Shown here: positions 3,087 through 32,100 of the stretch, piece by piece
Layout: each line of letters opens with the position of its first letter
How positions within the stretch are numbered: position 1 is the stretch's first letter
Source: Marsupella aquatica
Taxonomy: Eukaryota; Plantae; Marchantiophyta
Length of the DNA stretch: 64,000 nucleotides
Assembly: GCA_973895155.1 (NCBI GenBank)
Contig: OZ316891.1
Coordinates: 14,539,037-14,603,036 of the forward strand
Direction of reading: 5' to 3'
Position numbers and translations under genes: made by a program
Notes under the pieces: model-generated
What the model was told of the DNA's origin: nothing
Seen by the model: only the letters and a program-made list of their open reading frames with translations
The model's database searches: none

Positions 3087-3617
3087 GTTTATGACAAGAC
3101 AGTGCATTACATCATAGTAAAGGGGGAGGGGCTTTACAAGAGCAACCTGACAGACATTTCCTCATTTTCTCTCTTTAGATGACATCTAGCCCTGGTTTCC
3201 AAATGACAGGTAACTGTTGGTTTTAGAAAGAGGAGTGGCAGCAGTATACATTGAGAAACTACCAATCTTGTGTGGCACTTTGGGGGTCAAGGAAAAAGTC
3301 TGCTTGCCTTGTTTTTTAGGCCAATTTTAACTTTAGACCACCTCTGCAGGTGGTATTATGGTTTGTCCTCTCGGCATGAATGCCTTCCTGACACAGGTGC
3401 CTCTCTTTGTTTCAGGTTTGGAGCCCTACTTTTAGCCTAGAGACTCGTCCACTTGTTTTGGAATGGAGCAAGGGTCACAGAGTGAAGGCCTTGACCCCCA
3501 GAGAAAGTTCCATGTAGCCTAAGGACGACACTTTGTCCACCAACCCATGACAAACAAGGCACTCGAAATAGTACAGGGAAGGCCTAATAACAGTGGATGT
3601 ACTCCGGTGAGCAAATG

Positions 3618-3783
3618 CCACACTTTTGACATGAAAATGCTACCCATTCAAAGTTGGTGGAAAACAAGCAAAACCAACGGCACTAGGGAGCCACGTAATA
3701 AATATATCCACACTTTTGACATGAAAAGACTACCCATTCAAAGTTGGTGGAAAAGAAGGGAAACCATTTCCACTAGGGAGCCA
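3618..3783. repeat. 90-bp-spaced direct duplication
   Basis: CCACACTTTTGACATGAAAA..CTACCCATTCAAAGTTGGTGGAAAA...CACTAGGGAGCCA occurs at 3618 and 3708. Confidence 0.85.
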
Positions 3784-5132
3784 AATTATAAATAATGTGC
3801 ATAACGCCACCTACAGCTGGATCGTGCAAGAGAACTGACCTGGTATGCCATTTAGAGATTAAACAATTGTTATGAAACAATACCTCAAACAGGCGATCTC
3901 ACACTGATAACTACAGTAATGATTAACGAATTGAAATTGCCTTGTACAACCATCTCAAGGCCCACCATGAACTGAGAGATGGTACTCCATAAATATTCCA
4001 ATTCCTGTAGTGGCATGCAAAACATCCACCATACTTGCCCAGTGTGACACAATGGGTTTTCTATTCCAATCTTGGTGTTGTATTTGCACTAAAAACTATG
4101 GTCTTATGTTTCGAGGAAACAGGAGTGGTTGGCTTATCGTCCCTCCACACCACATCTAAAGGATACCAACTAGTGTGTTCTATGGTTGCTTGTCCAAACC
4201 ATCAGTCACTTAAAGACACGTCACAATCTTGTATACGTTTGTCACAACGGACTCAAAGCTCCAAAGAAACAATACTCCAGAAAATGGAGAGAAAACTGTG
4301 TTTGAAGCCTTCAACCCTTTCCTAGCGAGGCCTGCATCCAAATTAAAACATTCATGCCCACTGTCTGTTCCACTTCACATTGTTCATGGTAGAAATGATG
4401 TTGAACATATGCTCGAAGCTTTGGCGGACAGCACCAGTGGATGAAGTTGCCACAATTGGGTCGCCTAACACCGTAGGGACCTGCCGTTAGTATATGAGCA
4501 TGTCCTGGTCGCTGACGAGTACATCTATCAATTTGGACCTACTAGTTTAGCGAGTTACTGAAAATCGATCACAATGTCCAAACAGCAAGTTGAAGACACC
4601 CAGATCTCGAAAGGTGCTATTCGGGAAAACGCTGACATCTGCTGCTGCTGTAAGTGAGTCTTAGTACATGCCTCTGACAAGAATTTCATTTACTCATCTA
4701 CAGGCTTTACACTAACCACTAAATACTGCGAAGAAGGGCCAAGGTGCTCAGCCTCTTCTTTGACTCCTCTGAGTACCTCTCTTGATCAAAGACATTGAGA
4801 GAATATCAACGCAACAATTATATCTAGTTTCTCGAGAAGAAGTTGACGACGAGAAGCATAACCCAGGTAATACAGAAATGTTCCTTGGCTGGTACTGAAA
4901 ACAAGATCGGGAATTGATGAGCATGGCCCCGGAACATTGTGACATTCTGAACAATGAACAAATTATACAGCTCATAAAACCAAATGGGAATGTTGAAAAT
5001 TTGTGTAACACAAACATCTGTATCCGAAGGGGTTCAGGACCAGCTGACTAATAATGTACATAAGACCTAGAGTTGAAAGGGAGTCTAACCCCTTAATACT
5101 GTCCATGATGTATGAAGATGCCGTGATGACTT

Positions 5133-7021
5133 TCATGTGTCAAAACCTGAGTAAACCCCCGAGTCTCTTAGGAGGCGTTTCTCTTCTTCAACATAGCTTT
5201 TCCCTCTACTAGCTTGTCCAAGATCCCTCTTCCGTTTTTCCTTTTGAGAGAAGGAGCGAGCCTTTTGTTCAGCAACAGCATCCCTTTTCTGTTGTTTCGC
5301 AAAGGCAGATTCAGCTAGTGCTGTTGTAGCCATCTGCAATACACATGCAATGAATGAACGCCCCGGATATGGAAGACAGCCGATCTTGCAAATCAATCAA
5401 AGAATTTCAAGGAATTGAACCACATCTTTAGTTGCAAAGGGAGGGAATTGTCATGGTTACTACGACAGACGATGGAGATGAACTATAGCTGAGTTGAACA
5501 TCCACTCGGACACTACTGCCTCTGTCAATACGACTGACAAAGAAAACGAGAGCGAGACAGATACAAGACGCAAGATAAAAATGAAAAATAAGTGAAACGT
5601 TTCTACGTTTGCCAGGATGGTTCCAATATGAAATTGCACAGTGAACATGCAAGATTTTGTTGCTGATCGCAAAGGCATAACTATGATAACTGAGTCTAGC
5701 ATGGAAGAACCTTCACGTCTATCGAAAATCAAGCGAAATGCACAGGAAGGGCTCACCGTCACAGTTTTTTCATTGGCTAACTCCCTGGTAAGTTCCCTCT
5801 CCTCGATCGACTCCTCGCCCCGCTGTCCTTCACTCTCCCGCTTTCCGTTTGACCACGACCAGTTCTCATCTCCCGCTTCTTGCTTTGGAGCAGGAACATG
5901 AAGAATGGATGGTCCCCCAGAGTAGCCATGCCGGCTCAGGTCATCAAACCCTAGCTTGGGCTTCTTAACACCTACAATTACCTTCTCCGCATCCTTCTTT
6001 TCTGCAATCAAGACAAGAAAGTTTATAGCATGAGTAACTTGGATAGCCTACTGAATGACAACTCGGTTGAGCTGGAAACGATATCTTTGGTACTGCAGGG
6101 AGTCAATAGACTTGTGGTTTCTCGGACATGTCGTACTCACTTCTCCAAAATGATGAAATCTCCAATCTGACTGAGCACCTTGGAGCAGGTCTAGCCGCAA
6201 TATAAGCACTGTGAAGGATGGGAGCCCGGTGAGGAGTACATTGCAAATACGCAATTCCCCTTGGTCCTATGGTTGCATAAATTAGCGACATTCTTGACTG
6301 TGAGAAGGCCAGGCTTTCCGATTCCAGGGATGCAAGGGTGGAGAAGCAATGCACGTGATTGGTAGTCCTTACTAAGATTATGGGATGACTCTCTTTTCCT
6401 TTGCAAGCAACTGCTGTCCGAAACTACATCCTCGTCTAAACTTCACTTTTCTACTGCTAGCGAAGCGGGGCTCCGAGATCATCCGATTTCGAAATGACAG
6501 TTCATGCAAGAAAGAATTACATCCTGTCATTGAAAGACAGATACTCAAAGAAAGAGACCAAACCATACCGTCCTCGCAGACCGATTCTATTAACGAACGA
6601 GGGAAAGCAAGAGACCAACAAAATATTACTTGCTTAGTTCATAATAAGCAAACAATCAAAGGACGGGGTGTTGCTTCCTTCCTTCCTTCCTTCCTTATAC
6701 TCCACTTCCTTTAAAACGAGTGAGAGCACTACACTCTTAACACAGCTTAGATTCTCATTCACTAGCTTCGCAATACAAGATGAACAGATGGATGCAGATG
6801 TCACCGTTCTCAAAAAGTTTATTTCTTCTTCAAAGATACAGAACAAAAAGCACCGCAACTTATCTCCAGAGCAATAGCAAATAAAATCAACAAGGACCAC
6901 CCAACTTACGCGAGACTGCTGCACCCGCTGCCCTTGATTTCTGCTCGTCGTCCTCAGAATCAGGATCCGAGGACGAATCGTCGCTCAGTGCAGTCAGCGA
7001 ATCCATCGCTTTCCATGCCAT
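5133..7021 (-). CDS. Small conserved charged protein, UPF0690/C1orf52-like (about 185 aa, 3 exons)
   Basis: Exons 7021-6910, 6001-5757 and 5333-5133 join in frame through GT-AG introns (558 nt). Acidic N-terminus (SDDSSSDPDSEDDE), then the blocks GFDDLSRHGYSGGPSILHVP, NWSWSNGK and SFSQKEKRKRDLGQASRGKSYVEEEKRLLRDSGVYSGFD. The family name is from recall of the C-terminal motif and needs a search. Confidence 0.8.
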
Positions 7022-7379
7022 TTTGTCTCGTCACCCCGAATTCTCCGAATTCTCCGAACTTCCTCAATTCCAAAATTCGCCACTGCTCTTCAATCAACCT
7101 GCAGATTGAATTTTCGAAGCTCCAATTCGTGTCCAGAATCGATCTAGCTCTGTTTCTTCCGTCCCACATGGTCCAATCCCGTCTTCCAATCGATAATCTC
7201 GGACCCTAATTCATTCAAGGGAGGCACCATCGTGGGAAACAACTCAAAGAAGGAAATCAGTTTGGCCTTGCTAGGCCAGTTTAACATCCCTTTCGCTTAA
7301 TTAAAATATTTATTATCTACCCCCTTAGTTTGGAGTTTAGGGGCTTCACACCTTTTCTTTACCTTTGCTTTGACAGTTT

Positions 7380-7540
7380 TTTTCGGCCAGTGCTATCTTT
7401 TGCGTAGAGCAGGGCCTTCCCACCTTTTCTTCGATTGTTTCTTTTCGCCGGTGTGATCTTTTGCATAGAGCAGGGCTTTCCACCTTTTCTTTGATTGTTT
7501 TCTTTTTTGGCCACGGGGACCATTTGGTAGAGCAGACTCC
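7380..7540. repeat. ~63-bp tandem repeat (2-3 copies)
   Basis: ATCTTTTGC.TAGAGCAGGGC.TT.CCACCTTTTCTT.GATTGTTT occurs at 7395 and 7457. Confidence 0.75.
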
Positions 7541-9460
7541 TCATCCCAAGTTCTTGTGACTCCTCATCCCCCAGTTCTTGGAGTCACTGCCTTCTTTAGC
7601 TAGAGTGTGTCTATTGCACTACAAAGGGCTCTCCATCCAAAATTTTGAACTTGGATGTCATTTCAAAATGCTCCTAGTATGAAATGTTTGTTTATGTTAT
7701 TTATTGTAAGTCAAGGTTATGTCTCTAGAGAAAGTTTTGAAACTAAAGCCCGGATGTACTGCTATGTTGTCTCTAACTATCCCCATATATTGTGATAGGG
7801 GTCAGATCATATTACACCTAATCATGAGACAACCCAACTAAAAAAGGATGGAGAATTCTCTCATTAATTGTTTACTTGCGTTTCTGTCACAATAAGTACA
7901 TTATGTGCACCTAAAAATCAAATTGAGAGTTTGAATGGAATGGATTCAATGTGCACATTAAAAATCTCCTGTAGCTTTGCAGCGGCAAAGTACTCAGCAC
8001 TCTTTGTAACAACAGCAACACTCTCTAGAAAAGAGTATTCACAATACTCCAAAAACTTTATATCTCAAGTAACTCTGTAACAATAAAGTTGGTCAAAACA
8101 CTCTTTATAACAAGAGCAATGATCTCTGAAAAATAGTATTTCACAACAATGCTCATGCAAATTCCAATTTCCTTTAGCTTTGCAATGAGAAAATTACTAC
8201 AATTCCGGTAACAAGATTCTTCAACAACATTTTTGGAAGTTTGTCATTTTTGCAAAGCATCAATGCCCTAGAATCTCACAAAAGTGTGTTGGAAATTATT
8301 TATCCATTTGTGAAAATTGAGCTTATTTGGGCTTTACATTTGCCCCTTATCTTCTTTGGTGGAAATTGTTTCTTTGGTTGACGAGTCATTGTGGTGCTTG
8401 CTTCCTCCCTTTTGAGGGTAATAAACATTGAAGATATGTTTCGAGTAAATTAAGTCCATTTGGTTTTTCAATCATTGAGCAAACCACTTGAGGTGTATGA
8501 GTAAAATGTGAATCACTCAATCTACTCAAACTTTCATCTACCATGAAGACCAGATATGTTATTTATATGTAAGGACCTAAATGTACTTCACTTTTTATCC
8601 TTTTTAGTAACTGTGTGGAGAGGAAAGAGTATTGGGAGAATGGGGCAAAGCTTCCAATTAAAAAAGTACTGGCCACTAACAAAGTATCTGTAGGACAAGT
8701 GGGTGAGAGAGTTAGAAAAATGACAAAATGTTTGGACAGAAGTGATGATTGGTTGCTGACAGTGTAGTATTGGGACAGAATTGTAAATAGCAATATCCAA
8801 GCATATGTCTATGTTTTAATCCAGTCCATGTAGGTTTGGTTGATCCATCAAGGCTTCATGGACAACGTGCAGGTGAATCCGGGCTTTAATTTAAAAAAAA
8901 ATCTAGTAATAAAAGTCTATATAGTGATCTTTGCAACCTTAGAAAATCACATGTGAACAAAAGCTTTGGGATACAGATCCCACCCACTCTGATGGATCTA
9001 GTTTTTTACACTTCTTTAAAAACACTTTACTGTACACCAACTCAATAGAGTATTTGTAAACATTGAATTCTATTTGTGAATTGTGGAGCAAATAAACATT
9101 CTCCCTCTTTCCTCAAACACATTGAAATGCAATTGGATGTATCCATGAAGGCAACAATCTCTTCATAAGATGTAGAAACAAAAACACTCTTGAGAAGTTA
9201 TAAATGGTATCATGGTATTGAATTACATTAACAAGTTTCTCAGATTTTGTCCAGGTTTCAAAGTCTATCTGGGCATATATTGGATTCTTTTTCATTACAT
9301 TTATTGTTTTTTTATGGAGAGAAAATGGATTACTATTATTGGAATCCAAGGGGGCTTTATTACCTTTTGATGGGGGAGGAGGCAGACCAAGATTAGTCTC
9401 GATAGGAGGGAGTATGCTTGTGACACTCTCTTGAGAAGAGGACAAATCTTCATAGGAAAC

Positions 9461-9743
9461 CCCAGTTTAACCTGACGGGCACCTTGATGCCTTGTCGGGC
9501 ACGTCAAATTGTCAAATGACGACCCAAAAATGACCAATTTGACGGATATTCAAAAAGATTCTCCCGAACTCACCCGAACCTGAACCCCCCCGAACCCCCC
9601 CGGAGCACCCCCAAACCGCCCCCGAACCCGTACCCACCCCCCCAAACCCGAACCCACCCCTCCCGGACAACTCCCGAGCCCGGGTGCCAGTTGCCCATTT
9701 GCCGGCCATTTTCGCCCAGTTTGACGGGCAAGGTCAAACCGGG
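9461..9743. mobile_element. Non-autonomous hAT-type MITE (283 bp)
   Basis: Exact 8-bp TSD TAGGAAAC at 9453-9460 and 9744-9751. 13-bp imperfect TIRs CCCAGTTTAACCT / AGGTCAAACCGGG. Internal CCCGAA(C) subterminal-type repeats. An 8-bp TSD is characteristic of hAT elements. Confidence 0.8.
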
Positions 9744-10772
9744 TAGGAAACTCTCCTAGCTTCCCTTATTTCTCACTGAAACACCTTAGACACTATACAC
9801 TCTTAAATAACCACTCTCCCAGAATCTCTGAGAGGACAAAACAATCCACTTCGTTACTCAAGAATATTTTCAACAACCCTGCCCCCAAGCTGTGGGAGGA
9901 TAAACAATCCACTTCTTTGCTCAAGAATATTTTCAACCAATTATGGTACTAGATCCACCAGGTTTTGCTTTGGGGACACAATATAGTCCACTTTTGTACC
10001 TTGAGTATTTTTCAACTAATTATGGTGGTCTTAAAATAGAACCCCTACCTTTGACCAGTTTCTTAGGGTTTGTGCAAATTTGTTGGGTATTGAACATATG
10101 CCTTATCCATCTGTCTCTGTCCTCACTTCCCCCCGCCACTACCTTCTATCACCATAAGGTATCCATGACCCTTCACCAGGCCCAGTCTTTCACTATCCTT
10201 TGTAGAACTGAGGCAATTTATTATAGGGTCTATAGACAGATTTCACTCCCTGACTCTCCTAAACAGGTTACTTCAGAGTTTTACCAGGTGTTTCAGTTTG
10301 CTGCCCAATACAGTGTTAGTCTTTTGGGCTTTGTTTTGTTAGTGCTATTGGGTTCTTTGTTTTTTTCTTGTTTGATGTTGTAGGGGACACCATGCCTTGT
10401 TGGACCTCTTTGGTATTCTTGGGGCCCATTTGCCCTTACTCTTCTGTGTGTTGAGTTGCTTTGCATTTGAGACCATCCCTCTCCATTCAGGTGTTCTTGT
10501 TTTGGGGTTCCTTGTGGTAGTGGATTCAATGTTTCTTGTTCCTTTGGTGTTGTGGGGGACTACTCAGCTTGTTGGATCTCTTTGGTGTTCTTGGGGCCAC
10601 TTCCCACTCCTCTTCCCCTTTCTTTATTGGATGGCTTTGCCTTTAAGAAAATGTCTCCCTTTTGGGATACCTTGTGTTAGTGGGTTCTATTTTTCTTGTT
10701 CCTTTGGTGTTGTGAGAGACCTTGGCTTGACAGATCACTTTGGTTCTATAGGCTATTTCCCCTTCCTCTTAC

Positions 10773-10975
10773 TTTCCCTTGGGTTGCTTTGCCTTTGGGA
10801 CGATGTCTCCCAGTTCCCTTCACTTTTGGGGATTGCTTTGTCTTTGGGACCACACTTTCCCTTGGGTTGCTTTGCCTTTGGGACAATGTCTCCCAGTTCC
10901 CTTCACTTTTGGGGATTGCTTTGTCTTTGGGACCACGTCTCCCTCCCCCTTATTGGATTCCTTTGCCTTTGGGGG
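10773..10975. repeat. ~83-bp tandem duplication within a pyrimidine/G-rich repeat relic
   Basis: TTTCCCTTGGGTTGCTTTGCCTTTGGGAC.ATGTCTCCCAGTTCCCTTCACTTTTGGGGATTGCTTTGTCTTTGGGACCAC occurs at 10773 and 10856, followed by a partial third copy. Confidence 0.85.
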
Positions 10976-12247
10976 CCATGTAGTCCCGTTTAGAGTAGTG
11001 TGTTTCGGAACCACTGAGTAATTTCTGAAGAATGTTTTTGACTAATTATGATCTCGATTACTCTAAGTTTTGCGCTGGGGACATTAGGAGACCAGAGGAG
11101 CAGTACTCACTTTTTCTTTACGAAGGGAAACCTGAGGACCCCATCTCGTAATCATTGTTACATTCATAAGCTCACAAAAAATGCTCAATTACCACCGATC
11201 CTTAGTATTGACGATTGTTTTTGGTATAGGCAACTGAGCCAGGCACCTACTGTAGCTGCCATATGTTCACGATCTAAATTTGGTTTTCGTCAGTCCAAGG
11301 GACGCGGTAGTTGACAGGAATGATATGTAAAAGTGGAACGGTAGAGATTGAGCATTTTCGCCTCAGGATAAAGTTAGGGTTGGATTTTAAGTCTGGTGCC
11401 CTGATTTGAACCAAAACACTCGACAGGATCTGAGCCTGAGAACAGTTTAAACAGCATACATTATAATTTGGAACAGAATATAGAGCGGTAACAAGCAAAA
11501 ATAGGTGAAAGGGCATATGAAAATTATTTTGACCCAGGCAGAATCGTCACTCCATCCCACAAACAAGCTGTAGGAGATACGAAACAGTTTTCCACAGCAA
11601 CAAGGAAGCAACCGGAGTTCCAGCATCAATCCCTCGTTAATATCACACTTTTCTGAAGGCAGGCGAGTGCAGCATTGACAGAAAAATCCCTAGTATCCAC
11701 CTAATGGTAAGATAATCAGATAGATTACAGCTTGGTGAGAAAACACAACAAAGACGAAATGGGATGCTTTGAATTGCACAAAAAACAATGCAACCCACAG
11801 GAAACCACCATAGTTGTCAATCGAATGGCATTGAAGGTTCGGGGTCAGAGGTCGGCAGAATCGTTAGTACTTGTTGGGAGCGAGAAACCGCATGACTTGG
11901 GAGAGGGGAGGCTCATGCTCCCTAGGACCCAACGTGCAGTTCCATTCAAAATGCTATATTGACAATATGACACATGGGTATCTCCAGAACCTTCCACTTT
12001 CCAAACGAAATGGGTCACCTGAGCGACAGGTTCTGTGGAGGGTACATCATTCACATAATAGTTCCAGACTTCAAGAGAAGTGTTTTGGAATGGAGGAGGA
12101 AAGGAGGGCCAGCCACAGAGTGCCATTTGAGAAACCAAAACAACACTCCACCTGCATCAGACTAAGCACAGAACAGGCCCCAAAGGGACAAAAAGGATAC
12201 CATAAGCACAGACCTCATCCACAATTGTAATACGAGTTCTAGAGTAG

Positions 12248-15200
12248 TTACAAAGGTTCCCAGCATCTCTCTGAACCCTTGGAATGGGCTACACGGTCAA
12301 TCACCTGTGACAGGTTATCCCAGTTGATAGGTTTTGTGAGATACCCATCTAGACCCATAGACTCCAGTGAATCTTTTCCTTTCGTTAGCACATCTGCTGT
12401 CAACGCATAAATAGGTACCAAAGAAGTTTGTCCACCAAGGGCTCGAATTGCTTTAATTGCACTCAACCCGTCAAGGACCGGCATTTGCAAGTCCATAAGT
12501 ATCATATCATGCTGTCCCCTCTGTATTGCATCCACAGCCAGCTGGCCATTACCCACGAGTTCCACCTGCACCGAAATTGCGAAGAATTCGTAAATTCTCT
12601 GCTTTAAAGACAAATGAAGTAACCAGATAGCACTTAGACATGGAACACGTTTCAACGTGGTCAGCTTAACATTTCGTAGGCCTATGAAGAGATTTCAACT
12701 GAGCTGGCAGTTTTGATAACTTGAATCCATTAGCCACTATAACTAGGATTTGCGTAGAGAGAGAGTATACTTACGAGAACTCTAGCTATTTACACTAGGA
12801 AATAAGATCTTCGTGCACATAAAAGTCACAAACCAAAGTCACATACCTCATGGCCATAATGCTTTAACATCTTTTGAATGAGAAGTTGATTCACAGTATT
12901 GTCTTCAGCGACAAGAACCTTCAGAGTCCGGCCCTTCCTTTGGAAAGAGCCAAATCTTTTAAGAAAAGAGACTTTTCCTGAGGACTCGACTTCAAGAGCT
13001 TGCACACCCCTGGAAAGAGGTATACAGAATGCAAACGTGCTACCTTTTCTGGGTTCACTTTCAATCCATATCTTTCCACCCATGACCGTCACAAGGCCCT
13101 TGCAAATTGCAAGACCCAGTCCTGTACCACCGAACTTTCTTGTGGTACTGCTCTCAGCTTGAGAGAAAGACTGAAAAAGTCGACTTTGTTGCTCTTTTGT
13201 AAGACCAATCCCTGAATCCGAAACCCTTACTTGGAACCATATCCTTGGGTCCACCACATCACTATTGCCCATACCCTCGTTGTCTGTGTGGATCAGGTTT
13301 ACGTCTCTTTCAACCTCTGGACAGTTTTGCAGTGCAGGAGGTACACCATCCAGGCCCCAAGCCACAGTATCTTGTTGTGACGGGAGCATGAGAGACTCCT
13401 CGGTTGAATCACAGATGCCAGACTCAGAACAGCTTTCTACGCGCTTCCAGCTGATGCTGATCCCTCCCTCTTCTGTGAACTTGATTGCGTTACTGACCAG
13501 ATTGCTAAGGACCTGTCTTAGCCGATTGGGGTCTCCATATACATACAAATCGTCCTCAGAGGGCAGTTCAATTGACAATCTCAGTTTCTTCTCAGCCAAT
13601 CTACCCTGAAACAGGGCTGATACCTGCTCCAACAATTCGCTGACATCAAAATTAACATCCTCCAGGGCCATGTGGCCAGACTGAATTTTTGAGAAATCAA
13701 GGATTTCATTCAGCACCTGCATTAAGCCCTCCGCAGATCCTTGCATGACCCTCAAGAACCGTGCCTGCTCTGCTGTTAATGAGGTGAGTCGTAAAAGGTC
13801 AAGCATGCCCAATACTCCAGTCATAGGTGTCCGTAGTTCATGGCTCATCATTGCAAGAAACTGAGACTTTGCCATATTGGCTTCCTCAATGGCATCATGG
13901 GCATCCTGTTCGGATGTTATGTCATCAAAAAGCCAAACTCGGCCATGAGCAACAACACTGCTTATTGGATAAGAGCGCACTTGGAGAACACAGCGCGGAT
14001 GCTTCAACACCCAAACCCAGTCTCTGACTTGATTAGGGCTTCCAGCGATCATATTGAGGCACATGTACACATCTGCTACTGCATTACTACGATCAGCAAG
14101 ATGACACATGCCCTGAGCAACCAATTTCGCATCATACTCTCCAGCACAAGGGAATCCCAGCAAATGTGCAGCAGTTGGATTGATCAAGCATTGACCGTGT
14201 CCATCATCTACAAATGCAACCGCCTGAGGCATTTTTTGAAGAATAACATCAAACCGGCGACCCATGCGATCAGAGCACATGGCCCGTACACTACTGGCCA
14301 GTAAGAGAGGCAGAGATTGCCCAGCCTCAGCCATGACAGACTCTGCAACATCGGGAACCTTATCTGGATCCAGCCACAAAGCGTAGCATAGCCCTTCAGA
14401 CCTGCAAAATGCATTGCACAGCAAACTCATACAAATTGTACTTGTACCAGTTACGTCACACCCTAAACTCTAGCTCAAGGATCTGTGTGTAAAAGGACCA
14501 AGCGAGTCTGCTCAACACTTTACAGTGGATAAGAAAGTCAAGTTCGAAAGACCTGTCTTCAGATACACATATATAAGGAGATAGGAAAAAGAAGAAATTG
14601 GAGTCGACATACACTTCACAATAATAACTTAGGCAAGGAAGACGGCTAACCCTTCAGCATGAAAGTGAGTTGCAAGAAAGCGTTTGGGTCTGGCTCCAAG
14701 GACAGCCGTCAGCATACTCGGAAGGAGCAAGCTGTCCGTGCTGCATACCTACAAAAGACAAAGAACAAAGTCACTCAGGGGAAGGGTTTGCAAACACCAT
14801 GCTGTTTAAAAAACAGATATCCCGCATCGATTGATGAAAAGGATATATCAGCCTGAATCAGTACAATACCACTCCACTTCAAAGTTGTGAGATGGACAGG
14901 ATTTGCACAAATCCGGAACGATCATCAAGACACGTTAACAGCTAAGTCTCAGAACGCCTACTCCGTGGCTGCATTGATCTTAAGGGAAAGATTTGGTATT
15001 CAAATTTGGCTACTGTAGAACATACTCATTCCTCTTTCTATTCGTACACCAGGGAACTAATGCAATAACGAAAATCACCCTAAAGGATTCTCATCCACTC
15101 ACTGGAGAGAGTTTGAAGTGGCGAGAGGTGCTGCAATATTATGTACTAAGGCTCGCTCGTTTGCCCTTTTTGAGGTAGACAATATATAGCGCACGATGGC

Positions 15201-16195
15201 AGAGTTATTCATTTCATAACATGTAGATAGACAGTTCCATTAACGTTGAGTGCAACCTCAGAACGAGAAAAACTCTTTCAACCGTATCACACGACAGATG
15301 ATCTCCTTCACTTGATCAACGAATCATGTTATGATTAAATGACAGGTAGTGACATTAAACTATTCCATGTCAGTGGGGGAGGTCACCCACCACGCCCAGA
15401 ATCATAGATCAACTCTTGGTTGATTCTAACACAGGTCAGGCGGCTAGGGAAGTGATTCTCACAAGGACAACTTGCAGACAGAAGAACCAAGCCAATGTGA
15501 GAGACAGCCACTTAATGGCGAACCGCAACAATTGAATTAGAGAGAAAGAAGTATCACACCTCACATCGTGTTGAAGCAGACAACGCAGACTTGGAGAAGC
15601 GTAGCGGCACTGTGACTAAACCCTTTGGGACGCACAGAACAGTTTCAGCTAGCCGCAACGGATTTTGAAGAATGGCAGCAATAACAAGGTCACATTGCAA
15701 TGACGTCGCTACCACTTGTAGAACAGAGTGGGGAAGGTCGGAGTGCTCACTGCCTGCTTTGTCCCCCAAAGGCAACTGAGGCTTAAACTCTCCTGAATAT
15801 CCCCCTGGAGGAATCCCTAAGATATTCGCCGCAACTCCCCCACTTCCAGTGGAACTTGGAGTTCCAGAATTTGCTCGAACATACATCCTATCGTTGTCAC
15901 ATCCAAGAACAGAAGACCTCACTAGTTCTACATCTTTCACTGCAGGAGGCCTGGAGAAATCTGGTAGAATCCCACCAGCAGCGCAGGCAACAGGGGCACC
16001 CTCCTGACCTTCACACGGTACTGTTTGCCAACACTCATTCTGCTTCGGTCGTTCACTACCAAGACCTCTAGTCTCAGTACACACACCTGTACCATCACTA
16101 GAAGTACGCTGACCCTCACCTACCTCCAAACTAGGGGTCGTTTCTATCGAACTACTAATTCCCATTCGTTTCGAACTTGACATAAACGAGTCCAT
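12248..16195 (-). CDS. Cytosolic hybrid sensor histidine kinase: disordered N-term, GAF-like region, PAS, HisKA, HATPase_c, REC (about 868 aa, 4 exons)
   Basis: Exons 16195-15560, 14748-14651, 14401-12847 and 12565-12248 total 2607 nt, in frame, all GT-AG. Kinase boxes: H-box AMMSHELRTP, N-box VLSNLVSNAIKFT, G1 VSDSGIG, F-box LFQSFSQ, G2 GGTGLGL. Receiver motifs: VAEDN, ILMDLQMPVLDG, YALTA, YLTKP. PAS signature: ILQKMPQAVAFVD...INPTAAHLLG...GRVWLFDDIT. No transmembrane segment seen. The GAF-like call is tentative. Confidence 0.92.
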
Positions 16196-16431
16196 GAGCA
16201 ATCCAACTTGTCCAACATTGCACCTACCCTAAAGGAACCACATTCTGAAGACGTCGCATGACACCGCCTAATAGCCCACTACCCGAATCCCTCCATCCAG
16301 CTCTTAAAAGCTGCTTAGTGGATCAAACTAGCCTTACGACGAACTGGTTAATCTCACTACATCTGTCTCTACTTACTAAAAATACTAGAACTACATAGGA
16401 ATCACTGCATTGTTAAGGAACTGTCACTGGT

Positions 16432-18262
16432 TCAAACCCCTATGGTTCCCATAATGTGATGCTTCAACACAGGAACGACAACTTCTGGGGAGCTCAATTG
16501 TGGTAAATGACCAGCTGTTGGGAAAACCTCGACAATAGTCTTTCCCCCTAAAGACTGCTTCAAATACTCCGACACGACAACCGGTACAGCCAAATCCATG
16601 TGACTCTGCAGTATGTGGCAAGGTACAATTACTTGCGAAAGGACACCCCTGAGATCACTTTGAAAAATGGTTTTAGCTACGCTGAAGGCAATATCAGGCC
16701 GAATGTTAAAAAGAGTTCGGCTGAACTCCTGCACTGACGAGGACTCAATATCTGCGCCAATAACCAGAGGGGCAAATCCAGACACCCAAGCTTTAAAGTT
16801 GGATTGCATAGCTTCAAAGAGTTGATTGAGATCTTCCTGCTCAAAACCTCCAAAATAGTTTGCATCGTTCAAGTACCTGCACATAAAGATATGCAGAACC
16901 GTGAAAATTTGATTACTTCAGGCACAACAAGGCTTCTCATTTCAAATACGACTTTTGCTGAATGCGAAACAGTGTCCAGAATTGGAACTTGACTAGAAAA
17001 AGGGATGCAGAGAACTCTATACACTGCAGACTAAGAGAGGATCAAGTTCTCTAGCTATGCTTGATTTTCCATGTTGCTTGCAGGCACGAAAACCGATCTC
17101 TCTAGTCATAATATGTTCACAATCTAGGTTTGCTTAACAAACATGCGACTTCGGAAAAAATATCTAGTAAGAGCGTTAATCACATAGGGCAACTTGACAT
17201 CGTCCTAGGTAACATAGTCCGTGCAGAACACTCCCACCAACATTCCCAATCCGACAGCTTCCGTGTTCGCACCAAAGGGGTTGCCATTTTCAAATAACGC
17301 ATGCAATACAAATCGCGTCTTGACTTTCCATAAAACCGATCAACGGCAAGGCTATATACTACTAAGAGGGTCTCCCTGACCCTCAACTGAAAAGCAGTCA
17401 GTGTTTGCGCCTTGGCGCTAGGAGCTAAACAACTGAGATGATTATCGTAGTGCAGACAACATATTGAACTTTGTTTCGTTGTAGTCCCTCCTACCGAGCT
17501 TGTGCAAAGAGTTCAAAGACTCCGCCGTAAAAAGCAAGATGCTGATAACTGATTCTACTGGATGACTGATAGATGAGTCCCTCCTACTAAGCTTATGCAA
17601 GGAGTTCAACAACTTCGCGGTGAGAAGCAAGATGTTCAAACTAACTTTACTGGATGACATGCAGATGACATGGCTTGGACAAACCAACAGAGCACTGCAT
17701 ACTGAGAACATTTGAGGTCGCCGCAGTAAGCGACAGCCACAGAGAGTTCTTCCTATGAGTTCGCACAGGAAACACATTACTATGAACATGTCAGGCCGAA
17801 ACTTGTCCCGCACAAGTGTCAGCTTCATTTTAAGTGTTTACATAAGCAGTCATTCTGAGACACGTTGCGATGGTACCGAGAGCACAGCGCAACATACCTT
17901 GGAGAGGCCGATATCATGATAATCTTGGAGAATAAGTGGGGCTTCTCGATAGATGCAAGGCATCCCACCATACCAGAAACCGAGTGACCCACATAGATGC
18001 ACGATTCAATTTCCAGCTCGTCTAAGATTGCAAGCAGGTCGTCAGCATAGCCATGCAGTGTAGAGTAGCGGTTGAAGTTGAAGTAATCAGGGTTTGTTGT
18101 CCCTGCCCCCATGTTGTCGAAGAGAATAAGCCGGTAGTCATCAACCAGTTGAGGTACAACATGTTTCCAGACAGATTGATCAGTGCCGAACCCATGTCCC
18201 AACACGACCAGTTCTTCGCCAGAACCAACTATCCGCACATTGTGGGCCTCAAGTAGAGACAT
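16432..18262 (-). CDS. KAI2: KARRIKIN INSENSITIVE 2-type alpha/beta-hydrolase receptor (269 aa, 2 exons)
   Basis: Exons 18262-17898 and 16876-16432 total 810 nt. The intron interrupts SPR|YLND, the usual KAI2/D14 position. Motifs [32 protein letters not shown] and [14 protein letters not shown]. The catalytic triad is intact (GHSVS, DLAVP, GHLPQLS). Confidence 0.95.
17484..17662. repeat. 93-bp tandem duplication in the KAI2 intron
   Basis: GTCCCTCCTAC..AGCTT.TGCAA.GAGTTCAA..ACT.CGC.GT...AAGCAAGATG...TACTGGATGAC occurs at 17484 and 17577. Confidence 0.75.
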
Positions 18263-19644: not shown

Positions 19645-21691
19645 TTCTCTATAAAACACTGAAAGTTACAAAGAGACCCAGTAGAGATCGTAAACAAGGG
19701 AAATTCTTCTCTATTAAATACAAATATACACACTTTTTATATACAAAGGGACCAAACAGAGTACAAATGAACAAACAAAAGAGGGCCCAAGTGGACAAAA
19801 CCAATCGAAAAAGAAGTGAGCAAAAGGGAACCACTAAACACCAAGAAAGAGGAACTAAAAGTAAGAAATGAACAATAGGGAACCCCTAAAAACCAAGAAA
19901 GAGAGAGAGACTAAAACTAACCCAAGCGGACCGAGGTCCTCATCATTCCTACCGATTGTGGCAAAAAGCTAATGGTCCACATCAAGAGTCAAAACTAGAT
20001 CGGCAAGTGGGATTGGAACATCCTCAAGGGGAGCTAGCCGCTGCGGAGGCACACTAGCACCCACTGTAAGAGATCGACGATAGATGGCCCGAGCTTGAGC
20101 ACGCTGTAAGGTGACTGAAATGCGTTGGCGAAAGTGCGTGGTCAAAATAGAAAGCGGGGGTCCGGTGGGACCCATTCGGCCATGAACATCCCGGGCAGCT
20201 TGCCGAAGAAGCCCATTAAACTGAGGATGAAGACGCCCAAATAGCTCCACAGCAAGGGGGAGGAAGCTGTCGGATGAAGCTCGTGCAGCATATTTGGCCT
20301 CCTTCGTTGTTGCCGCACGTGACGCTGCTGCCCCTGCCGTAGTTGCCGCTGTCCCAATGATGTCTTGGCGCAATGGGTTTGCCACCACAACATCTGCCAA
20401 AGTACGTTGACCCTCACGGACCATGGTAAGATCCACCCGTAACCGCTGTGATGGAGGACCAGGTAACTCGAGTACCACCTCCCGCCGCACGCATACCAAA
20501 GAGCCAGAGAGAACCTGAGCAGTCGCATCTCGCACAGCGTCGTGAACAATAATGGTTTCACCTCCCAAACTGCACCGAAGAAGATGGACACTTGTGGCAT
20601 CACAAGGTTTCCCACAAGTGCAAGAAGGAGGTAAACCTACAAGAAGTGGGTGGGGCAGCCCCAGACGAAGACGCATGGCTGTGGAGAACTCCGTTGAAGA
20701 CATCCGCAAATGAGGAATGACTGGATTGGCCTGAAGCCATCCACCTGCGCCCTTCCCTCCGGAAGAAAGAATCCGAGCTCGGTCCGTGTCAGGTGCCTCG
20801 GAGAGGATGCTGGAAAGGGTGAAAGTGTGCATATGCCCAGCGAGGTCTGCCTGAAGACGAACGGGATCCAAGGATAAAAACTCATGGAAAGAAGGTAACG
20901 CGGCGCGAACGGGATCTGGTAATGAGGACCGCGCTGCGCGCAAATGAACCTGAAACGGGAGGGAACCCTCCTCTACCTCCATGAGAGATGAAAGTAAAAA
21001 AGGGCGATCCTCAATAAGAAAACGATCGGCCAACAACGAGAAGGCGGCCGCCCATGCACCCAAAAAGGCCAAAGGTGCAAGGCTCTCAATGGAAGTAAGC
21101 CCAAAACCACCCTGCGAAATAGGAAGACTGAGTTGTCGATGAAGCCACGGAGATGAGAGCAACGTACCCGGACCTAAAAGAGAGGCCAGGGTCTGACGAA
21201 TGGAGACATCAAATGCTCGAAGGTGGAGACAAAGATCCTCGGTAGGGGGATGCGTCCTAGCCAGATAAGACGCACGAGGGTGGATGCACCTCAACAACAT
21301 CCCAAATGCTGCCTGAGAATCTGCTAACTTAGGGAGCATAGGAGTATGGGCTAAGGCAGCCTGTATAGAGTCAGCGATGAAAGATGAGCAAAAGGAGGCG
21401 GTACCGACTGGGGAGCCAAGGACCCGAAGACCATCGGCTGGACGTAAGAACCCTGGGGGAAGCACAAGATCAGAGGGTAACCCAGCTGGACTCCATGCAC
21501 GACTCTTCACAGGCTGAACTCGTAAACCGAGGCCCATCAAATGGGTGGAAAGAGTGGCGAGGGCAGAAGTAACCGCGGCAGGAGGACCAATGATGTGGGT
21601 GTCATCTGAAAGGGAGGAGAAGATACACTGGGGGTGGGCCATGGCAGCTTCCCGTAAAGCTGTAAAATGGGCAATGGCAAAAAGAGGCCCA
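19645..21691 (-). mobile_element. 5'-truncated non-LTR retrotransposon with C-terminal restriction-like endonuclease (CRE/R2-group)
   Basis: ORF 21642-19969 is open upstream to about 21690 (GPLFAIAHFTAL, RT domain 4). It has the RT motif SLSDDTHIIG, the thumb motif LPISQGGFGL, a Zn knuckle CTCGKPCDATSVHLLRC, and the RLE motifs HDAVRD...RVDL...ADVVV...KEAKY. About 300 bp of 3' UTR follows. Confidence 0.85.
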
Positions 21692-21699
21692 TTTAATGG

Positions 21700-22045
21700 G
21701 TTCTCTATTAAATCCTGAACTTTACAAAGAGGCCCAATACAGGTGGCAAACGGGAAGTTCTTCTCTATAAAGCACTGAAAACTTTAAAGAGACCCAATAA
21801 TGGTGGCAAACAAGGGCGATTATTCTCTATAAAATACTGAAAATACCCAGTCCAGGTGGTAAATAAACCAGGAAATTTTTTCTCTATAAATCACTGAAAA
21901 TTACAAAGAAAACCCCCCAAAAGGTGGAAAACAGGTGAAATTCTTCTCTATAAAACACTGAGATTCACAAAGGGACCCAATGAAGAATATAAACAAGGGA
22001 AATTCTTCTCTATAGAAACACGGAAAATTACAAAGGGAATGAAAA
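21700..22045 (-). repeat. ~60-bp degenerate tandem array (about 6 units) resembling the retroelement 3' end
   Basis: TTCTCTATAAA..ACTGAAA.TTACAAAG.G.CCC...AAACA.GG.AA.TT recurs at about 21701, 21761, 21823, 21880, 21944 and 22006. The same unit sits at 19645-19720. Confidence 0.8.
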
Positions 22046-26100: not shown

Positions 26101-29100
26101 ATGGCTAAGGAGAAGGTGGAGAAGGATGCGAAGGAGAAAAAAGACAGAAAGGATAAAAAGGAAGGAAAGGATAAAAAGGAAGGAAAGGATAAAGAGAAAA
26201 AAAAAGGAGTCACCTTCGTCCATGAGAGGCTCACTGAGCTTCCCCCTCCTCGATATCCAGTGGGCCAGGTGCTGTGGACAAGCATTTACATTGCTATCTT
26301 TGCTCTCCCAGATGTGATAGATTATAGTTCACTGCTACTCAACTTTAGAAGTGGTGCGAATTTGACAATTGTCTTTCTACGAGAACTTTCCTATACAATG
26401 TTTGACCTCCCGTACATTTTTATAATAAATGTAGTTCAGTTACTTCGAATTGGGCCCCAAGCTTGCAAACGTGGTTGTTTCTTATTGTAATCCTAGTTCT
26501 GACAAGTTATATATACCATGGTCATAGTGTAGTGTCACGCGGAAGTTTGTCGGAATTGTAGCAATGTGTTGTCGAATGTGACGACGAGGAGGAGATGAAT
26601 CAATGATTTCCTCAGATGTTCTCTTGCTGTACAAGAATGCGAAGTCAGTGAGCAAAAAAAGTCTGCACAGCTCGTACGAGTGCTTGTTTATACTGTAATG
26701 TATAGGCTACATGTAAATAATGTTTTCCAACTGGCTGATTAGAGCAGAGAACTGTCTTGTTTGAGCAGGAACCTCCTTTGCCTCCGTGGCCAATAATATG
26801 GACACCCATTGGCGTATGTCTGGCCTCATCAGTACCCGGTCTAAGCATAGACATACTTGCTGAGAATTTCAACAAATTGTCGAGGCCAAGCATGAGTATG
26901 GCAATAGTTCATCCGAAGGATCTAGCCGAAGATGTATGTACTCGAACTGCGACCAGAAATTTTCGCCCAAGAATTGTACTGAATTGTAACCATATATAAG
27001 CTCAAATTAAACCTTTATCCAGGTATGAAAATTGCCCCCAAATTATGTCCTTCATGTATGCTGCACCTCCTAGGGTAGACCGTGACTCGAGGCGACTGAC
27101 TTGCTGGCAGGTCTAAGCAGAAACCCCTCGGCAGCTTATTTGGGCATCCGTGGGATTGAACTACTCCTTCTTCCCCACCTTACCTCGCCTTGTGCCCTAA
27201 CGTTGACTACTACTTTCTTCGTCAACCTTGAATTTCATATTTCAGAGTTGCAAACCTAAGTCTGACCATCTTCCTTGCTCGATTTACATCTCTAACAGGA
27301 AATGGCAATTGAAGGAACTGTCCTAGCTGAAATGTTGAAGAAAGCAAAAGAGGTATCCACAGCCTTGTCGATACGATTCTGGATGGGGTTCTTAGGAGGT
27401 TTACATTTATCTGGCTGTACAGATTTCTTGAAAACTTGATATAATGTAACGACATGTTGGTACTCTTAATGGATGGGTCTCTTTTGCGCGACAGTGAGCC
27501 ACTGGTAAGAAGTAGCTGAAAGTTTAAAGAAATCGATATCACTTTCACTTCATCCCTGCTCAGCAAAAACAGCTGATCACTAGACGGTTCTTTTCGTCGA
27601 GTTTCATTCACTGTTTTTGAAGCGACCATTAAATGGAGACCTTCACGACATCGGGCGGGTCATTGCGTTTACGAGTGTGTCATGCTTTGTTGATTTCAGG
27701 AATCGAATGCAAGCTGGCCACCTTCAAATCTTCTTGTCAAATGTCTGAAGTGTAAGGCCTCAAGATGATTTTCTAGCTTTGCTGATCGGTGTCACAGAGT
27801 GCGACTGCCATTCTCTTAAAAATGACTTAACTTGGAATATCATTGAACTGAACGTGTTTTAATTTACAGATTTCCAGTTGGAGTCAGGGACAGATAATTC
27901 TAGATCGTAACAATGCTAGAAGTTAGGTAATATGTCACTTTGCAGCGAGAGTAAGTAGAAAAACAGGCTGATTAGTCGTAAAAGACGAACATGAGAAAGA
28001 CTAGCCGGTCTCTACAAAGAAGGAAATTGAATCTGGTTTTTCGTCATAGAAATTTTCGTCCCAGGAAGATTATTTGTCCACTGTTCAGGAACTCATCTTC
28101 TGCAAGAACTTGTTGTCTATGGCAGCCGGTGGGGCCTTCTCGAAAGGTAGCTGCAGTGTTTGCCATTCACTTATTTGGACCCACTTGAGCCACAGCAATC
28201 TTACCGAGAGTTCCTCTTACTTAGTGTCTTTGCAGCTAGGTCGGTTCTGGACAGAGATAATGAGCATCAGAACGAAGAAGTTAGACGAGCAAGTGCAGTG
28301 GTTGAAGCAAAACAGGCCTCTGAGGTAGGCAACATGGTCTGCGATTGATAATAGACGATCCTCCCTGAAAGGCAGATATACTCACAGTTCATTCTCTTTT
28401 GGACTTCCTAAGGTTTGTCTAAAGTTGTGTCAGATGCACTTTAGAAAGCATGTTCATGTGTACTGCTTATAGGACTTTGTGATTGATCATTTTCGCAATA
28501 TGACTGCATTGAAAGCTGAGGCTAACATTGATCAGTACTTTGCGCCTCTATTCTCGTGTCCTGTCGAATCATCCCTTCTTCCGGTCCTTTTCGAGATACT
28601 TCTACTGTTTTGCAGACTGTTTCTCAGCTAGCTCGGTCTTTAGTTTCACACCAGGAAAAGCGGGTAGAGAGACAACTGCTGACTTACCTGCAATATTGTT
28701 TCAGACCAAAAACCTTTCCCCTCTGTCCACGGCAATTGTCTAAACAGAGAAATTTGACATACAGTTTCCAACAATGTAATCTCCAATTGTGGGAATGACG
28801 AACATCATTTCAGCACGGTCGTCATCTTTTCTCCCGCTGTGTGGATATTTTTACCTTTCGTATGAGGGTAAAACTTTATTCTAACGAAAAGAGGACAATC
28901 ATAGAATCATTATATCAAAGAGCAGATCTCCACCAGTAAAGTTTACACTACCCTTTCAGAATTCTGAGAAAAAAAATCATTACTGGAATTCCGCTCCTGG
29001 CCTGTCAACAGTAGAATCGATTCATACAATTCGTCTGTTTCCCATCAAATCTTTGATCTCCTCACAAACCACCACTGGCAGGACTTCAAAACAAAATTGG

Positions 29101-32100
29101 CAGCGGCGAAGGAAGAAGTCACACTTGCAGAAACCAAACTGAGAGACTACAGAACAAAGCTGCTGGAAGAAATGCGGGCCAAAAAAGCAGAACGAAAACT
29201 AGCTTCCAAGGCTTCCAACAAAGTAGATGTCCCTGAGATCGGCGAAACAGAATTGAGCAAGGGGGCTGCCAAGCAGAATGAGCTCAAAGACAAGAAAGTG
29301 GAAGATAAAGATAAGAAAGAAGGCAAAGTGGGCAAGAAACAAGAGAAAGACAAGCCAGGAGGTAAAGCTGGTAAGTCAGTGTGACATCGGTGTCTCCAGA
29401 AAAACTGCATGTTGTATGCCTGGCTGAATATGTGTCCCAGGCCCTGGAAATCTGTATGCTTAAATCCAAACGGATCAAATGCTTTTTTGAAAGAAGGATT
29501 TGGCAATTGCCTTGAAATTTTGAATACATGACGCAGCATACGCTCTAACAAACAACTGAACAATGAGTATCATATGATCTAGAACGTCGCACATCTGTCA
29601 GATTGTTTTCATTGACAAGTAACAGCAGCATTTGTTGTGAGAATCTGATGACTTTGTACTGGAACGATTTCGAGGTTTTTCGCGAAGTCCTTGAGATTCC
29701 TTACTTTCCAAGGATCTATGAAAAAATTGTGAAGAATCTAGTAGAAAGTTTCAGTCACTGGATCAATAGGAATAGGCTATCGTGATGACGTTTCCAACTT
29801 TTCTTGGCGGTGTTTTGTCTTGAATTGTACGTAGTATAAGTACACGAGCTCAGAAAATATATTCATGAATGTGGGGTCTAGAAATGAGATTGAAATTGGG
29901 CAGCATAGAAATTTGAGGTAAGATTGACAGAAATTTCACATAGAGAACTGGCCATGAACTGGATGAGTTCTTGCAAGGATAATCTGTTTTTCATCTCACT
30001 GTCGTGATAACCTTTAGCCGATTTTGATTGAATGAATTCAGAAAAGGGCCGAAAGGGAGAGGGTGAACCAGAGCCAGTGCTTGTCCCGATTGTTAGTCCA
30101 CAGGATCAGTTTAAACTGTTGGAGGACGAAGTTACCAACAAAAAAGCCCTTGTGAAGGAGCTAGAAGCTAAGGTTAATTTTTACACAGATGTCCTCCTCA
30201 CCTGTCAAACAAAGAAAACACAACACCAAGTCTGGACCACAGATTATCTTTCTCATTCTCCGTGTCTTCAAACCCATGGCCTTTGTGTCCGATGCGATAG
30301 ATTCATGCTTGTAGAACCGGGATGTTTTGCAACCTGATTGACGTTTCTCCTTTCAAGTGTCGATGAAGGTCTAAACGTGAAAACTAATCACTGAATTAAT
30401 CTTGCAGTTATTAAGTTCAGTAGAGAATGAGGCAAGAGTGTTATCAACAATCCTTGAACCGTTCACTACTGGGCGCTTGTATTGCATTATGGGGATGGAT
30501 TCGGCATTGCCAGTAGTACAACTTGCATGCGAGGAAAAGAGTTTTTTTAAGGCTATCTTCAATGTAGCTCCAAGACCAAAAGATCCGTCCATTTTACCTG
30601 TGAGTGAAGGACAAGATAAGGCAAGAAATGATGATGTCAGTCCTGAGATATCATCATCTAAATCGACTGACTCGAAGATGGACAAGCGAGCTGCCAAAAG
30701 GGAGGCAAAAGTTGCCAAAAGGGAGGCAAAAGCTCAAGCTGTTGCCACTGCCACCCCACCCTTGATCACCGAGATGAAAGCCGTGGTCGAAAAGGGCAAC
30801 ATGTTGGAGCCAGCTAGAAGTGTATGTGTTGTGGATGTTTTTTACGAAACACCCCTCCCTCCAGAAAATAATGAAGAAGGGGAATCCAAGAAACAGGAGA
30901 AAGTGGTGAAGAAACAAAAGAATGAAGTGGGCGATAAGAAACAAAAAGAAGACGGACAGAAAAAAAAGGAAAAGAAAGCGAAGACAGGAAAGGAAGACCA
31001 AGAACTGCTCAAGGACAAAGGTGATGAAGAGAACAAAGAGAACAAAGAGACCAAAGGCAAGAAAAGTAAGACAGCTAAGAAGGCTGTGGGTGCGAAAGAT
31101 GAATCCTTGCCATATGAACAAGTTGCTCAGGCTGTTGCGTTAGCTGTTCAACGTCTTCTGCTTCAAGTTCAGCTGTATAGTGCCATGGGAGGAGACAAAG
31201 TCAAAATCTTGAAAGTACCAGAGGCCAAACCTATTCAGGTGAGACAATAACTTTGTAGTACAAGGATCAGAGAGTATTGAAAGTATTCTGTTGAGAAAAT
31301 GTGAGGAGCATTAGCCCTTTCGACAGGAGCCAGTCAGTTTGTTTGCAGGCTCTTGACTCAAATGGAGGCCTTGGAAATTTGTTCGTTAGTCGCTTTGAGT
31401 CATTCTCCAGAACGTCAGCGGGAACGTCAGCTGACAAAATATGCTTACACTTAAAGAGACTGAACTGAGCGCTTTATAGCTTGCCTCTAAAATGAACAAT
31501 TGTAAGAAAAAAGTAAATTCAACTGTAAGAACTACTGTCATCTACTGTAGCTTCTTACTGATGGTCGTTTTGGCTCAATATCTATTCTTGGACCAAGAGA
31601 ATTTCCAAGTAGATATTAGAGTCAATAAGCCAAGTGCTAGACCGAGTGGAAGAACTTTGAGCCAATGGAACTGACAGTCGAACTTGGCATAAAACTGAAA
31701 CATCCCTCTGGAGCAATAATTCTTTTCAGCGTGATGGAAATCATTATATCTAGTGAGAACAAACTGACTTCCGCATTGCCACCTTCCAGGTTTTCCATTT
31801 AGCATTATGAGTGATCTGCTTCTTACAGGATTCTTGCTTTCATAGGGGGAAGACCGAAGTTACTACAATCATCTTTTGAACGAGTTCCCACAAGGATTGG
31901 TCACAGTTCCTATCATTGTGCATTGCTTGCTGGAGCAAGTTGCAACATATCATTGGCCTGTAGAGGATCTCAAAGCCATTGAAGTATCCAACCTGAACAA
32001 ACAAATACGAAACGGCATCTACCATGAATTTGAGAAGCGTGGGCATCCAAAGTGGATTGGAGTCCGAGAAGATATAGAAGAGGGAATACCAACAAGATTT

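Follow-up and report, generated by a model that had tools for sequence, protein, structure and literature searches.

A KAI2A gene and its neighbouring hybrid histidine kinase gene in the liverwort Marsupella aquatica: a probable relic of a bacterial rsbQ-sensor operon

KAI2 and D14 receptors of plants are thought to derive from a transferred bacterial RsbQ, and a paper from 2022 reportedly proposed the transfer of bacterial RsbQ to plants. In Bacillus, RsbQ and RsbP are encoded in one operon and RsbQ binds to RsbP at its PAS domain (Nadezhdin, Brody and Price 2011, PMC3183031), and RsbQ perceives butenolides (10.1101/2023.12.05.570042). Genes of this type form the RsbQ-PAS module, in which the hydrolase gene (rsbQ in Bacillus rsbQP) is located immediately upstream of the sensor gene on the same strand, two separate proteins are made and the output part varies (kinase, hybrid kinase or GGDEF) (PMC3183031). 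The role of plant KAI2 before MAX2/SMXL and in algae has been described as unclear (PMC10504578). Among plant kinases, the moss PAS-histidine kinases PHK1 and PHK2 are soluble hybrid kinases of early streptophyte lineages only; their layout is PAS-PAS-HisKA-HATPase-REC and their Marchantia homolog is Mapoly0082s0006 (PMC6137987). Furthermore, same-strand open reading frames a couple of hundred nucleotides apart on one RNA region have been described in bicistronic nuclear mRNAs of green algae and in the plant CDC26/TTM3 locus. In the Chlamydomonas bicistronic mRNAs, the median inter-ORF distance is 183 nt (PMC11291117).

We analyzed a stretch of 64,000 nucleotides from Marsupella aquatica (assembly GCA_973895155.1, contig OZ316891.1, positions 14,539,037 to 14,603,036), which is called the window in this paper. 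As listed in Table 1, a KAI2A gene is followed by a gene for a hybrid histidine kinase on the minus strand of the window. Gene order, strand and the division into two proteins are those of the RsbQ-PAS module. In contrast, a GAF-fold domain comes first in the window partner, ahead of the PAS-like domain, which is not N-terminal. Moreover, RsbP-PAS is described as lacking a terminal DIT (PMC3183031), whereas the PAS-like domain of the window possesses one, and the window pair consists of plant nuclear genes with introns. Because two defining features (an N-terminal PAS domain and the lack of DIT) are absent, the sequence places the window pair as a sister class to the RsbQ-PAS module and not as a member of it. 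Our main reading, with a probability of about 0.6, is that the streptophyte ancestor received as a unit an rsbQ-sensor operon that still specifies two separate proteins, with RNA running across the gap unspliced in a relative.

Table 1 Features of the KAI2A-kinase locus. Positions are those of the window; X1 is the presumed RNA run described in the text.
Feature	Position	Strand	Content and basis
KAI2A coding exon 1	17898..18262	minus	ATG 18262; Ser94 nucleophile motif; Pfam Abhydrolase_1, translation, X1 contig cover
KAI2A intron	16877..17897	minus	1021 nt, GT-AG, phase 2; sequence
KAI2A coding exon 2 to TGA	16432..16876	minus	Asp216, His245; translation
Intergenic gap	16196..16431	minus	236 nt, seven ATGs; unspliced in the relative's RNA contig
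Candidate intron	16229..16437	minus	209 nt; GT-AG geometry in sequence; splicing not seen in X1
Kinase exon 1	15560..16195	minus	disordered N-terminus and start of GAF-fold domain; next intron spliced in X1
Kinase exon 2	14651..14748	minus	GAF-fold domain; X1 joints 14746/15558 and 14399/14649
Kinase exon 3	12847..14401	minus	end of GAF, PAS-like, HisKA (His432), HATPase_c, start of receiver; Pfam, motifs, AlphaFold model of the Calypogeia ortholog
Kinase exon 4	12248..12565	minus	receiver (Asp788) to stop; Pfam Response_reg; X1 joint 12563/12845

Three further features were observed in the window. A 604-aa open frame at 19969-21783 (minus strand) has no significant Pfam match; it may resemble a non-LTR retrotransposon protein, namely the C-terminal half of the type that carries a restriction-like endonuclease. 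At 28968-41063 (plus strand) there is a large multi-exon gene rich in Lys and Glu; the four exons tested gave no Pfam match, and its product may resemble SPAG17/PF6, a protein of the ciliary central pair. At 50429-51858 (minus strand), Pfam identified exons of a gene of glycosyl hydrolase family 63.

The KAI2A protein is composed of 269 amino acid residues encoded by two exons. A check of the alpha/beta hydrolase motifs found the Ser-Asp-His triad (S94, D216 and H245) intact. The closest named relatives among the top matches are Calypogeia fissa KAI2 and MpKAI2A-type proteins, and the Calypogeia protein shares 88% identity with KAI2 of Marchantia paleacea. Judged from these matches, the window hydrolase is an ortholog of eu-KAI2/KAI2A of the KAI2-MAX2-SMXL pathway. 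However, the available text of the literature on MpKAI2A and eu-KAI2 mentions neither a kinase neighbour nor a kinase partner.

The kinase is 868 amino acid residues long and is encoded by four exons from ATG 16195. Pfam searches identified the HisKA, HATPase_c and receiver domains of a hybrid histidine kinase, and a motif search of the window protein placed the motifs of the HisKA His, the HATPase_c N and G boxes and the receiver Asp at positions 431, 545, 640, 669 and 786. Thus, both KAI2A and the kinase are intact in the window, with their catalytic residues present. In AlphaFold models of two orthologs, one from Calypogeia and one of Sphagnum type, the order is disordered N-terminus, GAF-fold, PAS-like, HisKA, HATPase and receiver. 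The top Foldseek matches of the first sensor domain were GAF domains (E 1.6e-5), and the DIT of the PAS-like domain is located directly before the HisKA helix. Identity of the window kinase is 84-85% to two C. fissa copies and 66% to the Riccia sorocarpa protein, and the family extends to Zygnematophyceae in a homolog search. The same GAF-PAS sensor also occurs in another clade of plant proteins (P0176, P0177, P0179 and P0180, from Riccia fluitans (R1flu_023444) and Spirogloea). The GAF-PAS unit is also present in bacteria, ahead of kinases and cyclases. A profile made from 76 bacterial sensors alone matched residues 151-409 of the window kinase (E 4e-25). When the window sensor was used as a query against plasmid sequences, there was no match. 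Assignment of the window kinase to PHK1/2 was also considered, because these are likewise soluble hybrid kinases of early streptophyte lineages. This assignment was rejected since the window kinase has a GAF-PAS rather than a PAS-PAS layout (PMC6137987); in addition, it adjoins KAI2A.

The same linkage was found in other liverworts. KAI2A is beside the kinase twice in Calypogeia fissa (consecutive accessions CAM6093963/CAM6093964 and CAM6094661/CAM6094660) and also in Riccia sorocarpa (consecutive gene numbers R1sor_010806/R1sor_010807). MpKAI2A is Mapoly0023s0137 (10.1101/2020.11.17.387852), and Mapoly0023s0138 is MpolyHK11, which is listed as a HisKA-HATPase-REC kinase (PMC6324907 supplement). 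In Marchantia, consecutive gene numbers (0137/0138) point to a putative kinase neighbour of KAI2A. Our protein searches retrieved no Marchantia kinase sequence, possibly because lengths of 918-958 aa fell outside these searches. Outside subscription papers and bioRxiv supplements, we found no report that links KAI2 to a neighbouring kinase and no main-text mention of Mp2g11720 or Mapoly0023s0138. The Marchantia gene ids were not found in the readable supplementary files of PMC12993094 and PMC11787308, and the available portion of 10.1101/2025.03.14.642314 mentions neither a kinase nor an operon.

Beyond liverworts, a moss-like genomic contig (L002) carries a KAI2 gene without introns, which is followed on the same strand, after a gap of 430 nt, by the orthologous kinase gene. 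The kinase copy of this contig is broken by an in-frame TAA stop and a frameshift; the gap and the lesions are at 2014-2443 and 3113-3156 of the contig, respectively. At the end of the gap there are a long T-rich tract and, 19 nt upstream of the kinase ATG, a TAG acceptor of strong appearance; these features suggest a 5' UTR intron. Among 33 plant KAI2 loci, of which 17 extended at least 2 kb downstream, this contig was the only one with the kinase beside KAI2. According to incomplete paralog lists, the two genes are not adjacent in Sphagnum (KAI2 matches on chromosomes 2, 5 and 15, kinase on chromosome 10), in Diphasiastrum (chromosomes 19 and 12) or in Spirogloea, the one alga that could be checked (KAI2 on s7, kinase on s6). 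The gene orders indicate that the KAI2A-kinase linkage is conserved in liverworts and in one moss-like contig, and that it is not universal.

RNA over the locus was sought in four runs (X1 to X4); no RNA run from the window's own species was among those listed. X1 is a single run from a relative that is about 90% identical to the window. It is presumed to be RNA, and its contigs are spliced at the three kinase introns with CT..AC splice ends. Most of kinase intron 1 is nearly without cover in X1, and runs X3 and X4 cover the introns as DNA would. Run X2 matches the entire window without a difference and may be its source. A 1334-nt contig of X1 spans 16770-16279 and 16259-15558 unbroken and then crosses kinase intron 1 in the spliced form; between 16279 and 16259, 19 letters are replaced by 51. 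Of the KAI2 coding sequence, the final 339 nt are present in this contig, joined to spliced kinase exons, and KAI2 exon 1 is on a separate contig. Because 16229-16437 is unspliced and intron 1 is spliced in one contig, mature RNA in the relative runs through the gap unspliced. The initial annotation of this DNA, which proposed a spliced fusion of KAI2 and the kinase, had allowed for read-through or dicistronic RNA as a caveat, and a contig that contains both KAI2 exon 2 sequence and kinase exons 1 and 2 fits this caveat. The annotation had named a lack of reads spanning KAI2 and kinase exons as evidence against its proposal; the X1 contig spans both. It should be mentioned that the contig is also compatible with overlapping RNAs and with exon 1 elsewhere, so that it does not prove one dicistronic molecule. 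The depths of X1 contigs along the locus (138, 201 and 341) were not taken as evidence. A second spliced kinase-type contig of X1 (3571 nt, about 85% alike) has about 680 nt upstream of the position of the kinase ATG.

The gap contains short ATG open reading frames, as the initial annotation had described; we counted seven ATGs in it. The one at 16218 opens 24 codons out of frame and overlaps the kinase ATG. Together with 15 ATGs inside KAI2, 22 ATGs precede the kinase start. In the algal bicistronic RNAs and at CDC26/TTM3, the second frame is reached by leaky scanning past a short, ATG-poor first frame (PMC11291117). In contrast, leaky scanning to the kinase ATG of the window was rejected on the ATG counts.

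These RNA data bear on a first alternative, namely that the two genes are neighbours by inheritance and that their proximity no longer has a function. In this case, two monocistronic RNAs with overlapping UTRs would be made, KAI2A would signal via MAX2/SMXL alone, and the linkage would persist since the overlap makes separation hard. A contig over two genes proves no single transcript, and the broken kinase of the moss-like contig and the apparent loss of linkage in Sphagnum and a lycophyte agree with it. Moreover, MpKAI2A shares a single pathway with MpMAX2 and MpSMXL (10.1101/2020.11.17.387852). However, both window genes are intact with catalytic residues, and the kinase indels in X1 preserve the frame among the differences listed (12 of 55 indels and 40 of 596 substitutions). 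According to a review, one trait of Mpkai2a is not suppressed by smxl (PMC10504578). We consider a functionless pair to be a serious but rather unlikely explanation.

The fusion proposed in the initial annotation depends on a 209-nt GT-AG intron that removes the KAI2 stop. All elements of its geometry are present in the sequence. A GT donor at 16437 precedes the KAI2 stop (...ATA GGG/GTT TGA on the minus strand), the last letter of the acceptor AG in GTTCCTTTAG is at 16229, and the next 11 codons (16228-16196) are open and continue in frame up to the kinase ATG at 16195. The length of the hypothetical fusion, estimated at about 1147 aa, was reproduced (268 + 11 + 868 = 1147 aa), and the alternative donors after the KAI2 stop exist at 16376 and 16337. 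Two arguments held in part. The kinase frame is indeed open back to the AG, but the claim that it is open exactly to this point is partly tautological because the frame-closing TAG is the acceptor itself. The donor is weak, as had been pointed out, but it is no worse than two genuine kinase donors (GAG/GTGTGA and AGG/GTTAGC). The chance of such an arrangement was estimated by 5000 dinucleotide shuffles of the gap, in which in-frame stop-free YAG acceptors were counted. An acceptor was found in 63% of the shuffled gaps at any pyrimidine content, in 22% with at least 6/10 pyrimidines and in 9.6% with at least 7/10 pyrimidines, as observed. Thus, the geometry of the candidate intron is not much above chance. 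There is a second AG at 16224 (minus strand), 5 nt past the candidate acceptor, which would bring KAI2 exon 1 (phase 2) in frame with the kinase. A splice from exon 1 to 16224 would skip KAI2 exon 2 and yield a kinase that carries half a hydrolase; the joints listed for X1-X4 do not include it.

The junction 16228/16438, which the candidate intron would produce, was absent among the 14 joints listed for the four runs, one of which is the spliced RNA of the relative. Because the gap is retained in X1 and this joint is lacking, the fusion is not supported as the main product. Several observations nevertheless favor a protein fused from KAI2 and the kinase by splicing, be it the main route or a minor isoform. 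In addition to the in-frame GT-AG geometry, the terminal Val codon with its phase-0 GT is kept in five of the eight proteins of the leafy-liverwort cluster that have a C-terminus. The 11 codons and the Met align with Riccia ungapped and in register upstream of a shared DSF motif (shuffle p = 0.033); at the position matching the window kinase start, Riccia lacks a Met. A fusion would also get kinase translation past the 22 upstream ATGs. Furthermore, the bacterial-type 830-aa hybrid kinase P0286 begins with about 50 residues of the C-terminal end of an RsbQ-like hydrolase, in frame with the same sensor; this protein may be a natural fusion or an assembly frameshift. Against these points stand the retained gap and the chance rate of the acceptor (0.10-0.22). 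KAI2 of Marchantia and Riccia is shorter by two codons at its end, and Asn is the last residue in three members of the cluster, so that the phase-0 GT is not general. In the moss-like contig, TAG acceptors are located 25 and 19 nt upstream of the kinase ATG, and their phase does not match that of the GTs in the KAI2 tail; the only in-phase acceptor is a GAG 9 nt upstream of the ATG. The hydrolase-on-kinase architecture that the initial annotation proposed to search for was not encountered: not one of the 175 kinase homologs examined has a complete KAI2 domain (150 of the 226 matches of one search were listed), the one match among proteins of 959-2735 aa is without hydrolase, and none of 77 bacterial pairs is fused. 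Overall, a fusion protein is unlikely. As the main route to kinase translation it is very unlikely. Because contigs drop rare variants and the 11 codons and Met resemble Riccia, a minor regulated isoform beside free KAI2 fares better, although it too is improbable. The production of two proteins from a locus with a mostly retained gap is highly probable.

Bacterial loci were fetched by alignment of short sensor homologs only, and the best 80 of 102 were used. In 77 of these 80 loci, a KAI2/RsbQ-like gene is located just upstream of the sensor gene on the same strand, and the upstream proteins are 40-51% identical to window KAI2. Judged by the first start codon, 67 of the 77 pairs overlap or are at most 60 nt apart. 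The three loci without RsbQ are cut 479 nt (L040) or 328 nt (L044) upstream of the sensor or contain a broken kinase (L089); no RsbQ was found in the L089 genome. Most of the 77 loci are cyanobacterial or from Bacteroidota and belong to a clade farther from plants. Many cyanobacterial members (L034-L073) have an additional hydrophobic N-terminal segment of about 110 residues, and in many of them the kinase frame begins before rsbQ has ended, with an overlap of about 16 nt.

As a reverse control, 45 RsbQ-like loci were collected by phylum or class searches over about 1200 genomes; seven loci (search centres, handles and truncated ones) were left out of this tally and of a 101-row tree. The sensor is downstream in five of five RsbQs with at least 230 bits against plant KAI2 and in three of 40 below this post hoc cut. 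A rank test of sensor link against KAI2 score gave p = 0.0026, with genomes that are not independent. By these scores, the RsbQs most like plant KAI2 are the sensor-linked ones. Of five plasmid RsbQs, the two best-scoring, from Sphingosinicella (L169) and Novosphingobium (L170), are both sensor-linked. The linked loci L169 and L130 end in a GGDEF/diguanylate cyclase and not in a kinase. The kinase matches of Gemmatirosa (L158) and Azospirillum (L159) have neither RsbQ nor a clear sensor.

Phylogenetic trees were made for both genes. In the 54-row RsbQ tree, plant KAI2 is sister to sensor-linked L170 and L130 (support 95/90), and a clade with support 100/98 contains the plants, L170, L130, the linked L169, which is a long branch, and two unlinked Azospirillum RsbQs. 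A single clade of the plants and all sensor-linked RsbQs was rejected (AU p = 0.027). The 46-row sensor tree contains a 99/98 split, which has the plant clade and the sensors of L169, L170 and L130 on one side and the cyanobacterial and Bacteroidota sensors on the other. P0215 is a kinase-bearing neighbour of the plant sensors, unlike the GGDEF loci L169 and L130. The earlier 101-row RsbQ tree, a quick search without alphaproteobacterial sequences, left the plant branch unplaced. Because both trees are midpoint-rooted and sparsely sampled, they show a matching placement and not the donor. Since the same pair occurs in the same order in plants and in many bacteria, plants likely inherited both genes together, and we regard a joint transfer of the rsbQ-sensor operon to the streptophyte ancestor as probable. 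Separate entry of the two genes, united later by chance or by selection for co-expression, could account for the lack of linkage in the one alga checkable and for the different output domain of the nearest linked bacterial loci, but it is hardly likely because order and strand match those of 77 of 80 bacterial loci, both genes are placed alike in the trees and the link is enriched among the RsbQs nearest KAI2.

Based on the joint transfer, we propose the following mechanism. The rsbQ-sensor operon would have reached the streptophyte ancestor as a unit by horizontal transfer, and KAI2A and the kinase would survive as a tightly linked read-through locus for two proteins. Because the 22 upstream ATGs make scanning through KAI2 implausible, the kinase would mostly be translated from a shorter RNA with its 5' end within KAI2 or the gap, or via a reinitiation route. 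KAI2A, in the ligand-bound or ligand-hydrolysing state, would contact the GAF-PAS sensor or pass its product to the sensor. This contact or product would change the His-to-Asp phosphorylation and give a KAI2 output independent of MAX2/SMXL. Control of the kinase by KAI2A is suggested by the binding of Bacillus RsbQ to the RsbP PAS domain and by the perception of butenolides by RsbQ. By this analogy, KAI2A and the kinase may still be functional partners, although we put this at somewhat less than an even chance. More tentatively, KAI2 might have arrived with its own GAF-PAS kinase, and liverworts might run this module from one read-through locus, with KAI2A handing the KAI2-ligand signal to a phosphorelay in parallel to MAX2/SMXL degradation and as the older of the two, possibly with a minor fusion isoform in which receptor and kinase are permanently connected; this wider picture is possible but somewhat doubtful.

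The locus is a concrete candidate for the ancestral output of KAI2. Because the kinase adjoins MpKAI2A in a model plant with existing mutants, this candidate is testable at once. Edits, promoter fusions and NMD-triggering alleles at MpKAI2A may affect the adjoining kinase. Furthermore, a bacterial RsbQ together with its sensor of the GAF-PAS class could act as a simple reporter for the KAI2 ligand.
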